Under the pieces are notes generated by a model. The model was not told the DNA's origin and did no database searches. It worked only from the letters and a program-made list of their open reading frames with translations. A DNA stretch of 64,000 nt from a phage, in sequence record PZ445448.1, one strand, 5' to 3'. The position numbers and the translations under genes are program-made. Shown here in pieces: positions 58,594-62,657 of the stretch (the first letter of the stretch is position 1; every line of letters begins with the position of its first letter).

Positions 58594-59148
58594 ATGAAAT
58601 ACTTTGTAACAAGCGACACACACTTTCTCCACCAGCGGGTCATGGAGTTTGATTCATGTCAAAAACACAGATCTCAGTATGATCACAATCTTGACAGTAT
58701 GAATGCGGGAATCATCGCCGAATGGAACTCTGTTGTGTCACCTGCAGACACTGTGTTCCACTTGGGAGATATTGCGTGCACTAATGATAAGAATATCAAC
58801 AACTTACTTCCAGATATTCTAAATATGTTGAACGGACATATTATTCTTGTTCGTGGCAACCATGACACACGGACGACTGTCAGAATTATGAAAGAGTTCG
58901 GTCATGAGGTTGTAGATTATTACGAGCTTCGCCACAACAAGAATTTGATCTGTATGAGCCATTACCAGTTTGCAAAGTGGAACAGAAAGCCTCACGGATC
59001 AGTCCAACTGTTCGGTCATGCTCACGGAACCACACAGCAGTTGTTTGGCAGGCAGTTTGATGTCGGTTGGGATGTGTGGGGGAGACTCTTACCATTAGAA
59101 GAGGCATACCGTATTGCAATGAGTCTTGCTATTGACAGCTGGGAGTAA
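58594..59148 (+). CDS. metallophosphoesterase (calcineurin-like phosphatase)
   Basis: motifs TSDTHF, GDIA and RGNHD. Confidence 0.6.
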   Translation: MKYFVTSDTHFLHQRVMEFDSCQKHRSQYDHNLDSMNAGIIAEWNSVVSPADTVFHLGDIACTNDKNINNLLPDILNMLNGHIILVRGNHDTRTTVRIMKEFGHEVVDYYELRHNKNLICMSHYQFAKWNRKPHGSVQLFGHAHGTTQQLFGRQFDVGWDVWGRLLPLEEAYRIAMSLAIDSWE

Positions 59149-59195
59149 TCCCTGCTATTTTAAAGAAAATTGCCACACAAGGAGAATCAGGAGAT

Positions 59196-59546
59196 ATGAA
59201 AGATGGGGATAAGCTGCTATATCTTAAAGTCCCCCTTGAAATACTGTCTATGTCAAAAGTTTTGAATGACACAACTGGGGAGGTTGTTGTTCTTGACTTG
59301 TATGACAAGATCGTATACTGCTACCTGCACAACTGGTATAAGCTTGGAGGAAGTTCACGCTTCACACCCAGCACAAGGAAAATTGCAGCAGATGTTGGGA
59401 TAAAGAAAACAAAAGCAGCAGCGTGCGTTAAAACTTTAGAATGTGCAGGAGTGGTTGAAATATCCACACAAGGGAGAGGTAAAAGATGCACATTTTCCAA
59501 AGTTTTGCCACCAGAAGAGGTTATTCGAATGTCAACAACTGGTTAG
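59196..59546 (+). CDS. putative DNA-binding protein (winged-helix-like)
   Basis: ORF with SD; C-terminal segment TRKIAADVGIKKTKAAACVKTLECAGVV; immediately upstream of hairpin repeat array. Confidence 0.4.
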   Translation: MKDGDKLLYLKVPLEILSMSKVLNDTTGEVVVLDLYDKIVYCYLHNWYKLGGSSRFTPSTRKIAADVGIKKTKAAACVKTLECAGVVEISTQGRGKRCTFSKVLPPEEVIRMSTTG

Positions 59547-59620
59547 ACCAGTAAAAACTTAAATATCTGTACTATAAGGATTCGTATGTTTTATGTTCGC
59601 TCTGGAACAGAGGTTAGTAA

Positions 59621-59703
59621 CTGTCCGTGATACGGACACTACTGTCCGTCACGCGGACACATCTGCCCGTAATACGGACACTAACTGTCCGTGATACGGA
59701 CAC
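59621..59703. repeat. four tandem 21-22-bp units each holding a 7-bp-arm hairpin (CTGTCCGTGATACGGACAC)
   Basis: units start at 59621, 59642, 59663, 59685; TGTCCGT / ACGGACA arms. Confidence 0.7.
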
Positions 59704-59850
59704 ATAAAGAATATAACTAAAATAACTAAATAATAAAAAATAAAAGATCTAGTACTTATGGTACTAAGTACATATACTTAACTTATGTAGAATATACTAG
59801 ATCCTAAGTACCATGTTTTAAATTTATTACTTACTATGGGTAGTGTCGGC

Positions 59851-60100
59851 CCTTCATTGGCACTCGCCTACGAGGGGCGAGATGCCGGGCCTCCCTGGTG
59901 CACACAATAACAGAAGTGCATACATGCAGGTCTGGTAACATGTGTGGGAGCGAAGCGATAGCGCAGGCCAAAGGCCGAGCACTGATGTGGACCACCGACG
60001 AAAGCTTGCCAGCGCCGTAAGGAGTCGGTTGAGAGTCTCCCGCGCGAGCTTGGATGAAGTTTATGTGTGGAAACGGACAAGAAGGCCCCTAAATCGCTCC
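59851..60100. ncRNA. candidate structured RNA or regulatory element (GC-rich island)
   Basis: abrupt GC rise; nested hairpins such as GGCACTCGCC-TACGAG-GGGCGAGATGCC; no credible ORF. Confidence 0.25.
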
Positions 60101-60206
60101 ACAGCTATATAAACTATACCAGGTAAGGCAATCGCACCAGTTTGATAGAAAAGCTCGTTACAAAGCGATACAGTGAGTTTTTCTATAACTTGAAGAGGAG
60201 GTAGTT

Positions 60207-60785
60207 ATGAGTCCACGCAAAGATGACCGTGAAAAGATTGCAAAACGTTATCAGAATGAAGAACAGATGGAGAAAACTTTCAAGTGGAAGCCAGGTTTCC
60301 AGCGTAATCATTCTAACGCTCGTGATCGTAAGCATCCGGATAAGTGGTTAACACCGCCAAATGATGGCATTCAGGTTGGTGATGAGAAGGAGCTGTCACC
60401 TGGAAAAGATGGCAACTACATTCGAACTAAGGAAGCAGGTCCAAAGGATGACAGCTATCTTGTAGATAAGGTTCTTGACGGTGTTGATGTAGGTGTTGAC
60501 ACTGTACGAAACCTTTTTCTTGGTTGGTATCGCACAGGGTTTTTCGACATCAAGGCTATTCGTCGTGTTTGTGATATTAAAAAGTCTGCCTACGATGATG
60601 ATTCCCTACATCGCACTCTGAGACAATACTCAGAGAGATACGGTCATCCAGTTATCACTCTTGACGATATTAACGAAGTTATGTATCATGTAGAGGTTGT
60701 TGCAGGTAGGTTCGGTGATGCATATCTCGGTATTCTCTCTGCAAAGGATGAGGTAATGTTAAATAAGATTTACTATGAACGCTGA
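60207..60785 (+). CDS. hypothetical protein
   Basis: GAAGAGGAGGTAGTT-ATG. Confidence 0.5.
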   Translation: MSPRKDDREKIAKRYQNEEQMEKTFKWKPGFQRNHSNARDRKHPDKWLTPPNDGIQVGDEKELSPGKDGNYIRTKEAGPKDDSYLVDKVLDGVDVGVDTVRNLFLGWYRTGFFDIKAIRRVCDIKKSAYDDDSLHRTLRQYSERYGHPVITLDDINEVMYHVEVVAGRFGDAYLGILSAKDEVMLNKIYYER

Positions 60786-60795
60786 GGGGCGATTA

Positions 60796-60984
60796 ATGAA
60801 CAATCCGGTAGCAAAGAACTGTAATAAATTCAACAAGTCTGCGATTCACACTGACAGGAAAAAGAGTTGGTTTCCTGACATTGACGAGGAGCTTGAGAGT
60901 TACTTTGAAGATTTAGTCACCAATGCAGAGGAGGTTGCGATTAAAGAATACGCAGACAGGAGGGATAAGGCCGGAATCTGTTGA
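60796..60984 (+). CDS. hypothetical small protein (start at MNNPVAK)
   Basis: GAGGGG SD. Confidence 0.4.
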   Translation: MNNPVAKNCNKFNKSAIHTDRKKSWFPDIDEELESYFEDLVTNAEEVAIKEYADRRDKAGIC

Positions 60985-61060
60985 CAAAAATAATGTTACC
61001 TGATAAGATCTGCAATATGATGTGATACAATTTTAACTTACGAGGTCTACAGGTAATGCT

Positions 61061-61303
61061 ATGTTTAAGGTTAAGCTCGTTTTTCGTTCCATGAATGAGG
61101 ATTATTTAGAAGATGAAGGTGAATTTCGTGCACTGGATGATGCAATAGATTTTGCCAACGACTTAGCTTGTATGAATACGGGTTATGGGCTATGCTGTTG
61201 GGATGGTGGTGTTCAGATCGGTGATAGCAAGATCTTCTACTTCTACCCTGAGCCCGATAACAAACAAATTAAGTATGTTTTATTTATTTGTGCTTTACAA
61301 TGA
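61061..61303 (+). CDS. hypothetical protein
   Basis: TTGACA promoter at 60973; ORF. Confidence 0.45.
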   Translation: MFKVKLVFRSMNEDYLEDEGEFRALDDAIDFANDLACMNTGYGLCCWDGGVQIGDSKIFYFYPEPDNKQIKYVLFICALQ

Positions 61304-61329
61304 GGTTGTTTTCGTGTATCATGATGAAT

Positions 61330-61620
61330 ATCCAATTTAAAGATGAATTTGATGGCTTTATCTCCGGATGCTTTGAAACAGGGTTCGGAGAAGACTGAGT
61401 TCCCCTTAGAGGGCTTGATAGTGCACCACACTTAAAATGGTAGGGGCAGCCAGCACATGACGATGTGACTCCAGCCAACCTGTAACAAGGTCGAGCCGAA
61501 GCGCGGGTAATAGGCCTCTGGTAACCCACTTGTTGGGTCTTGCTGGTCCAGGACGCTGGACAAGTCGCAGGGAACACCACCCTGCGGCGAACTTGACAAT
61601 CAGTATTTGCTATGATAAAA
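61330..61620. ncRNA. candidate structured RNA or leader (second GC-rich island)
   Basis: GC-rich with perfect hairpin CGCAGGG-AACACCAC-CCTGCG and others; no credible ORF. Confidence 0.2.
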
Positions 61621-61649
61621 TCCACCTATCACGTGATAATGGAGGAAAC

Positions 61650-61988
61650 ATGGCGGATACAACTAAAAAGCGTCGCCGTAGAGGCAGACCTCTGAAAGAG
61701 GAGTCCAACGCCATTCAGCTAGAGAAGAACATCCTTGATATGAAGGAATCTTTTATAGCGATGGTTCCAGAAGCTCACAAAGTTTTAAGAGAGCTGATGT
61801 TGGACCCGAAAACCAAACAAAATATTCGTCAAAGCATTGCAGAGTATGTTCTTGATAAGGCAGACCGAATGCAGGAAGAATATGATGAGATGTTTGGTGA
61901 AGAGGAAGAGGTGGTAGTAGAAGAGGCTGAAAAACCAGCACCTTTTATGCCATTCACCACAGAAATACAGCCTGTTGGCAATAGTTAA
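61650..61988 (+). CDS. hypothetical protein with AT-hook-like KKRRRRGRP motif and acidic C-terminus
   Basis: TGGAGGAAAC-ATG; TTGACA-N17-TAAAAT promoter upstream. Confidence 0.5.
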   Translation: MADTTKKRRRRGRPLKEESNAIQLEKNILDMKESFIAMVPEAHKVLRELMLDPKTKQNIRQSIAEYVLDKADRMQEEYDEMFGEEEEVVVEEAEKPAPFMPFTTEIQPVGNS

Positions 61989-62553: not shown

Positions 62554-62650
62554 GCTAGGTAAGCCCTTTGGCAAGGGCGAGGATTTTTAATCCTGAAAAT
62601 AGACGAGGTAGTCGTTGAATACATAGGTGGTTCGATTCCATCACCTAGCA
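62554..62650 (+). ncRNA. 97-nt tRNA-like element with irregular anticodon region
   Basis: perfect 7-bp acceptor GCTAGGT/ACCTAGC, D-arm, T-loop TTCGATT, but about 10-24 nt too long and no clean anticodon stem. Confidence 0.35.
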
Positions 62651-62657
62651 CCTTTTT

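Follow-up and report, generated by a model that had tools for sequence, protein, structure and literature searches.

Four short tandem repeats lie just downstream of a small winged-helix gene in the genomes of rV5-like phages: do they found a replication origin, or are they an array of operators? The alternative was raised by a sequence-only reading of the 64,000-nt stretch of phage DNA analyzed here (the window), which described an iteron-type origin or operator array. This either-or is supported by protein homology, the uniqueness of the array, purifying selection, and an unstable duplex beside the repeats. As to which half of it is true, the evidence leans towards the origin.

The window belongs to an rV5-like Vequintavirus and is 99.8% identical to Escherichia phage APECc02 in the region 59100-60300, which is matched by 117 further phage records, nearly all at 95-99% identity. 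The array corresponds to ~65.1-65.2 kb of rV5 (NC_011041), and the open reading frame upstream of the repeats is rV5 gp075. GenBank submitters labeled its product 'putative transcriptional regulator', whereas RefSeq and PHROG-based annotation call it 'replication initiation protein'; the repeats are entered in a few records as 'repeat_region' without explanation. Literature searches found no published work on the repeat locus. Skew analysis for an origin in the rV5 genome paper gave only changes that follow the direction of transcription, by which the authors considered the signal to be confounded (PMC3606486). The array is located 1.5 kb from a divergent transcription switch and a skew minimum. 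We rejected GC skew as an argument for an origin because it tracks the direction of transcription and is not independent.

Two groups of database entries stand out by their labels. CP057073.1 (L145), deposited as a circular 'plasmid' of 137.6 kb from E. coli RHB39-C03, represents the genome of an rV5-like phage, and 18 records under the name Campylobacter phage share 97-99% identity with rV5-like phages of E. coli. A carrier state, contamination, or mislabeling are possible explanations.

The array comprises four 19-bp units with start-to-start distances of 21, 21, and 22 bp (Table 1). Tandem Repeats Finder (period 21 with 4.0 copies; no other repeat in the window exceeds its score of 110) and a pattern scan agree with the earlier description of four tandem 21-bp units starting at 59621, 59642, 59663, and 59685. 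The unit core is TGTCCG-N5-CGGACA. The pattern TGTCCGNNNNNCGGACA matches at 59622, 59643, 59664, and 59686 with 0, 0, 1, and 0 mismatches, respectively; elsewhere in the 64 kb it has three scattered two-mismatch matches, against 1.29 expected by chance, and a total of 7 matches was reached in none of 100 shuffles. No further site was found in the remainder of the APECc02-type genome, making the array unique in ~135 kb. Inverted 7-bp arms had been ascribed to every unit. Perfect arms of this length (TGTCCGT / ACGGACA) are present in units 1 and 4, but those of unit 2 are 6 bp long and unit 3 carries C instead of T at arm position 3, a C found in nine of ten related phages. Asymmetric flanks (C...C) are common to all units, which are therefore half-palindromic direct repeats rather than pure palindromes.

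Table 1. Features of the repeat locus, with coordinates in the window.
Feature	Coordinates	Strand	Sequence or properties
Sigma-70-type promoter, 5' of the winged-helix gene	59132-59161	+	TTGACA, 18-bp spacer, TATTTT, TG in front; 10/12 matches
Winged-helix gene (rV5 gp075), proposed repeat binder	59196-59546	+	116 aa
Spacer, stop codon to array	59547-59620		No conserved feature; approximately neutral rate, 22% variable columns
Repeat 1	59621-59639		CTGTCCGTGATACGGACAC
Repeat 2	59642-59660		CTGTCCGTCACGCGGACAC
Repeat 3	59663-59681		CTGCCCGTAATACGGACAC
Repeat 4	59685-59703		CTGTCCGTGATACGGACAC
AT-rich tract, candidate DNA-unwinding element	59704-59837		Lowest GC, least stable duplex; 8% variable columns
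GATCTTTTATTTT	59737-59749	-	Exact match to E. coli oriC 13-mer consensus GATCTnTTnTTTT; 33 bp from repeat 4
GC-rich, ORF-poor block	59838-60110	+	GC 51-64%; strongly conserved within the genus; RNA fold z-score -2.7

Nearly all matches in an exact scan of IMG/VR with CTGTCCGNNNNNCGGACAC were single chance matches, and one contig (L092, described below) was useful. The array was not found in any of 5,426 complete E. coli genomes, nor in true plasmids, and a satellite/decoy idea was rejected. Two Logan contigs of related phages, L007 and L008, come from short-read assemblies that stop at the repeat region, one inside repeat 2 and the other just beyond repeat 4. K-mer assembly probably fails at the repeats, and metagenome contigs may consequently contain the locus less often than it occurs.

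Conservation of the array was compared with that of its surroundings in six Vequintavirus sequences, whose gp075 proteins are up to 13% different. Variable alignment columns amount to 2.4% in the repeats, 8% in the AT-rich tract, 22% in the spacer, and 21-28% at third codon positions of the flanking genes. Variation in the array is thus about tenfold lower than at synonymous codon positions, and the repeats are under strong purifying selection. What variation there is within the units falls on the central 3-5 bases and on arm position 3 (T or C).

The sequence-only reading took the neighboring ORF for a putative DNA-binding protein gene; the ORF exists, and its product is predicted to adopt a DNA-binding fold. 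An AlphaFold2 model built from 20 family sequences has a mean pLDDT of 83, and the predicted fold is that of PDB 4RO3. The same entry was found at the sequence level with the family profile (E 3.3e-10), and BLASTP with gp075 alone aligned 87 aa at 33% identity. The structure in 4RO3 represents the N-terminal domain of RepA, which acts as initiator in the Vibrio cholerae satellite PLE. In gel shifts, RepA bound to half-palindromic direct repeats of the PLE origin; these repeats are required for replication, and the protein was assigned to the RepA_N family from its structure alone (PMC7145576). The RepA N-terminal domain also occurs in ICP1 Odn, where it is fused to a T5orf172 nuclease and directs Odn to the PLE iterons (PMC8263062). 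Against Pfam DUF6945, gp075 scores 24.9 bits (E 2.3e-5), below the gathering cut-off of 28 bits, and its match to HTH_36 is sub-threshold as well. DUF6945 is matched by 19 of the 20 family members at E below 0.01, with 32.2 bits for the Henunavirus orthologue; for comparison, the RepA N-terminal domain scores 83.5 bits and Odn 119.9 bits. By its homology to DUF6945 and 4RO3, gp075 belongs, as a stand-alone domain, to a family whose characterized members recognize origin iterons, or is very closely related to that family, and we infer from this homology that gp075 binds the repeats.

Yet gp075 is only the front part of an initiator. It aligns only to the first ~110 positions of PHROG initiator profiles that span 300-450 positions (O-like and DnaD-like families) and ends just after the wing, without a C-terminal effector domain of the kind found in RepA_N-type initiators. 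Neither Pfam RepA_N (PF06970) among matches at E up to 1 nor Pfam Phage_rep_O was matched. Close relatives of gp075 are confined to Vequintavirus, and a profile search adds small homologues in other phages.

Some of the longer relatives (P0013, P0015, P0016, P0022, P0029, P0030, and gp58 of the Pseudaeromonas phage KLEP7, encoded at 2459-2923 of L134) end in acidic tails such as ...EDENDPPF, ...DLDDIPF, and ...CDEAPF. Such a tail resembles the C-terminal tip of bacterial SSB (DDDIPF). The tails may recruit SSB-binding replication proteins and point to replication partners; they are absent from gp075 and the Henunavirus-type proteins. The second RepA-like domain of ICP1 is not located within 43.6-102 kb of ICP1_2006_A; the mapped ICP1 origin lies at ~60 kb.

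Immediately beyond repeat 4, the DNA becomes exceptionally easy to melt. The 100 bp from 59703 to 59802 form the least stable duplex of that length in the genome (-102 kcal/mol; mean -133, sd 6) and have the lowest GC content, 17.5%, in ~135 kb. The AT-rich stretch with inverted repeats that had been noted here is borne out by a GC content of 17.5-29% over 59704-59837 and by two interleaved inverted repeats, 59746-59754/59795-59803 and 59758-59768/59804-59814. The tract further contains three ATAACTAAA-like units (59713-59738) and GATC sites at 59746 and 59800. It also includes the only zero-mismatch match in the 64-kb window to GATCTnTTnTTTT, a match that was noticed post hoc; GATCTnTTnTTTT is the consensus of the 13-mers in E. 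coli oriC (PMC4451416). A related element, AAAAGATCT, occurs at a similar distance from the sites in other genera of the Vequintavirinae. An exact DnaA box and an IHF consensus were both lacking between 59400 and 60300.

Promoter elements frame this region rather than occupy it. A consensus scan of both strands revealed no sigma-70-like promoter between 59547 and 60206, and the neighboring genes have near-consensus promoters at 59132, 60981, 61596, and 62000. The first of these, annotated as P76 in the rV5 RefSeq entry, would give early expression by host RNA polymerase. Because none of the 12-mers of the AT-rich tract recurs in the genome, the tract does not represent a repeated promoter class. 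The late-promoter motif of the rV5 paper, TGGTAAAATA, was considered as well and is not conserved at the locus.

On its far side, the tract gives way to a GC-rich block (59838-60110) that could encode a structured RNA or be part of the cis-acting region. The block has no Rfam match near the gathering score of any family and is too conserved to show covariation; in the rV5 reference, it carries an 18-nt deletion. A second block, 61330-61600, shares its main properties: both have 50-64% GC, no convincing ORFs, strong conservation within the genus, and stable hairpins with GNRA-like loops (GAAA, GUAA), and both precede the tRNA cluster directly, surrounded by small early genes. The two blocks may be structured RNAs outside known families. 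At gathering thresholds, Rfam reports tRNAs only, and at E up to 1 the region 59500-61700 yields just a weak match to rli43 (23.9 bits, compared to a gathering score of 100). The tRNA cluster includes a 99-nt tRNA-like gene at 62554-62652, which scores 35.5 bits with the Rfam tRNA model and is annotated as tRNA-OTHER in some records; ARAGORN reports an unassignable anticodon (4-base 'atcc'). The gp073 protein (192 aa) has no relative in PDB or Pfam, and its single-sequence structure model has a mean pLDDT of 35.

A homologous module is present in other genera of the subfamily. Henunavirus, Seunavirus, and Mydovirus have an orthologous small winged-helix gene at a divergent junction near RNA ligase and phosphoesterase genes, where it is the first gene of a Prs-Nampt operon; its products match Pfam wHTH-PRTase_assc. 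The region before this gene contains, in order, AAAAGATCTT, a T-rich tract, an invariant TATAGT, two copies of GTGCTCAnnnTGAGCA 23 bp apart, and the ribosome-binding site. The module of the window aligns to these regions only as its reverse complement (z 3.1-7.6 relative to dinucleotide shuffles), the forward alignment being at background. Across genera, the sites retain the outer GTG...CAC and the inter-site TTAGTGTC. The shared module thus consists of a GATCT/AT-rich tract and phased sites, at an identity between the orthologous proteins of only ~25%. Relative to these genera, rV5-like phages have the module in inverted orientation, shifted to the 3' side of the gene, and enlarged from two sites to four. 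Its retention after inversion and relocation suits a cis element that works independently of orientation. In the other genera, the module directly before the gene probably autoregulates that gene too.

The gene content next to the module also differs. Between 59547 and 60785, the window carries the repeat module, the GC-rich block, and gp073, whereas other Vequintavirinae genera (L133, L135, L147, and L148) have Prs (PRPP synthetase) and Nampt there, a pair for NAD salvage that lies between the winged-helix gene and a small DUF7230 gene.

For rV5-like phages, whose replication origin is unmapped, this locus is the best candidate to date. We put at roughly 50% the probability that the array and the AT-rich tract form an iteron-type origin of these phages, or one of their origins, in which the repeats are iterons for gp075 dimers. 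Phased and unique sites, iteron-binding homologues, the least stable duplex with its 13-mer, a module kept after inversion, the lack of an adjacent promoter, and the early host-type promoter of the gp075 gene lean towards this reading. Counting against it are the reduction of gp075 to a DNA-binding domain, the missing DnaA and IHF sites, and the operator position of the sites in the other genera.

In such an origin, gp075 would be made early from the host-type promoter, and each dimer would read the half-sites TGTCCG and CGGACA, the centers of which are 11 bp, or one helical turn, apart. Because the sites follow each other at 21-22 bp (two turns), four dimers would line up on one face of the helix, where they could assemble into a nucleoprotein complex and thereby put strain on the 100-bp tract next to the sites. 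The tract would then open, and the phage primase-helicase and DNA polymerase I-type enzyme, or host factors, would be loaded there. We infer the melting, helicase recruitment, and any replication function of the module; the recruitment step has no assigned agent because gp075 lacks a C-terminal effector domain.

Could the repeats serve gp075 in another way, or act as hairpins? It is possible, if rather doubtful, that they form an operator or roadblock array and that gp075 is a transcriptional regulator with no role in replication. As roadblocks, four dimers would keep transcription that starts at the early promoters (58119 and 59132) from reading through to the non-coding block, gp073, and the genes beyond; as operators, the dimers would regulate a non-canonical promoter that lies within the AT-rich tract and points either way. 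The sites of the other genera, between the invariant TATAGT and the ribosome-binding site, are in the classical autoregulatory position, and both the match of the orthologues to wHTH-PRTase_assc and the name chosen for gp075 by the GenBank annotators agree with a regulator, as does the absence of an initiator effector domain. In addition, gp073 has no promoter of its own in the scan and may therefore depend on read-through across the array, and a -10-like TATATT on the minus strand, 6 bp before repeat 4, is positioned similarly to the TATAGT of the other genera. In the window, however, the sites are downstream of the gene and inverted, and thus cannot autoregulate the promoter at 59132. The scan for sigma-70-like promoters around the array was negative on both strands, and a leftward promoter would run antisense into the gene. 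Moreover, four phased sites beside the least stable duplex with an oriC-type 13-mer exceed what a roadblock needs, and the closest characterized relatives of the protein are origin binders, not repressors. Origin and operator roles are not mutually exclusive. In P1 and pSC101, iterons serve as the basis of the origin and at the same time repress transcription from the rep promoter, a pattern matched by the layout in the other genera.

We consider it improbable that gp075 binds the array as a cis site of another kind, such as one for packaging initiation (pac), for partition, or for anchoring, or one that serves as decoy or target when the phage is in conflict with satellites or Odn-like nucleases. 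In favor of such a site, a small terminase is not annotated and the terminase large subunit is encoded ~4.5 kb downstream, relatives of the domain are fused to iteron-targeting GIY-YIG or T5orf172 nucleases (ICP1 Odn, P0012), and one rV5-like genome was deposited as a circular E. coli 'plasmid'. Least probable is that the units act as hairpins of RNA or single-stranded DNA, be it as a terminator or stabilizer stack, as processing sites, or as a primosome assembly signal. Every unit is able to fold into a stem of 6-7 bp with a loop of 3-5 nt, 59600-59850 folds as single-stranded DNA with a z-score of -6.2, and the array region is probably transcribed from the promoter at 59132. In 11 sequences, however, T at arm position 3 has repeatedly changed to C, each time with loss of the pair and without compensation, and covariation in the units equals that of shuffled controls (the observed value was reached in 226 of 500 shuffles). 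The array has no T-run and no terminator call, its 21-22-bp phasing and conserved asymmetric flanks are features of protein sites, and the sites of the other genera keep the outer GTG...CAC with a changed stem sequence and without the hairpin geometry. Uncompensated changes at arm position 3 combined with low variation fit a protein site on duplex DNA. Nothing in these comparisons favors an RNA hairpin.

If the repeats are iterons of an origin, the scheme may reach beyond the rV5-like phages. Tentatively, and with clear reservations, we propose that the Vequintavirinae share a two-part origin module, composed of phased sites for a bare RepA_N/DUF6945-type domain and an oriC-like unwinding element. 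The initiator would be reduced to its DNA-binding domain, and in rV5-like phages the module would have been inverted, doubled to four sites, and uncoupled from autoregulation. Melting and helicase loading would then come from the phage primase-helicase acting directly, from host factors that recognize the 13-mer, or from transcription or an R-loop at the GC-rich, purine-rich block.

Another region of the window invites comparison. The ORF-less 'non-coding' box of the rV5 paper, at 18.4-20 kb, is low in GC and situated at a convergent strand switch. Within it are five copies of ATAGTTGCCYTG, oriented both ways, several short tandem arrays, a perfect 18-bp inverted repeat (19137-19154/19271-19288), and the second least stable duplex of the window. 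The box is a candidate pac site or regulatory region, or else a candidate origin that rivals or complements the one proposed here.

Phages of the rV5 type are widely used in phage therapy, in biocontrol of E. coli O157, and in reference collections, and the locus offers a directly testable origin hypothesis with a defined site, protein, and unwinding element. The analysis extends the iteron-binding domain of RepA and Odn, known from the arms race between Vibrio PLE and ICP1, to a gene that belongs to the core of a whole subfamily of large phages of enterobacteria. It casts doubt on one or the other of the two labels, 'transcriptional regulator' or 'replication initiation protein'. If a DNA-binding domain of 116 aa alone marks the origin, the question becomes how a replisome is recruited without an initiator effector domain; if gp075 is only a repressor, the RefSeq label is wrong on more than 100 genomes.

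How does the module compare to known systems? It differs from all of those likened to it here in that the initiator is reduced to a DNA-binding domain, DnaA and IHF sites are absent, and gene and module are arranged tail-to-tail. Iteron plasmids (P1 oriR, pSC101, F, R6K) and the RepA_N plasmids of Firmicutes (pSK41, pTZ2162) differ from the locus, which has no DnaA boxes or IHF sites; such host-factor sites are common, though not universal, at iteron-type origins. Further, gp075 has no Pfam RepA_N match, and its replicon is a lytic phage. The tail-to-tail layout of the window also contrasts with P1 and pSC101, in which the module directly precedes the rep gene, as it does in the other genera of the Vequintavirinae. 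Winged-helix repressors with tandem operators (MarR, LexA, and phage types; wHTH-PRTase_assc) resemble gp075 as small dimeric winged-helix proteins on palindromic sites, and the orthologues of the other genera, like such repressors, are encoded just downstream of a promoter-like element with two sites. In the window, by contrast, the sites lie away from the promoter of the gene and have no detectable promoter next to them.

By descent, the closest systems to gp075 are PLE RepA and ICP1 Odn. The PLE origin has three repeats of ~30 bp, whereas the window has four 19-bp units spaced by 21-22 bp, and RepA and Odn carry a C-terminal domain (initiator or T5orf172 nuclease) that has no counterpart in gp075. 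PLE is a satellite that relies on the replisome of its helper phage; the phage of the window is lytic, has a genome of 135 kb, and brings a polymerase and a primase-helicase of its own. In anatomy, the closest is the lambda origin. There, four phased iterons, inverted repeats bound by dimers of a winged-helix domain, are followed by an AT-rich unwinding tract; the origin lies inside the O gene, and the C-terminal domain of O recruits P and DnaB. In the window, the array is instead intergenic, and gp075 has neither a second domain nor a Phage_rep_O match. The lambda arrangement and the core motif of the window occur together in L092 (IMGVR_UViG_3300037493_002298), a viral contig of high GC content, in which three TGTCCG-N5-CGGACA units, 21 bp apart at 819-880, lie inside the linker of an O-like initiator gene (438-1292), a lambda-style 'origin inside gene'.
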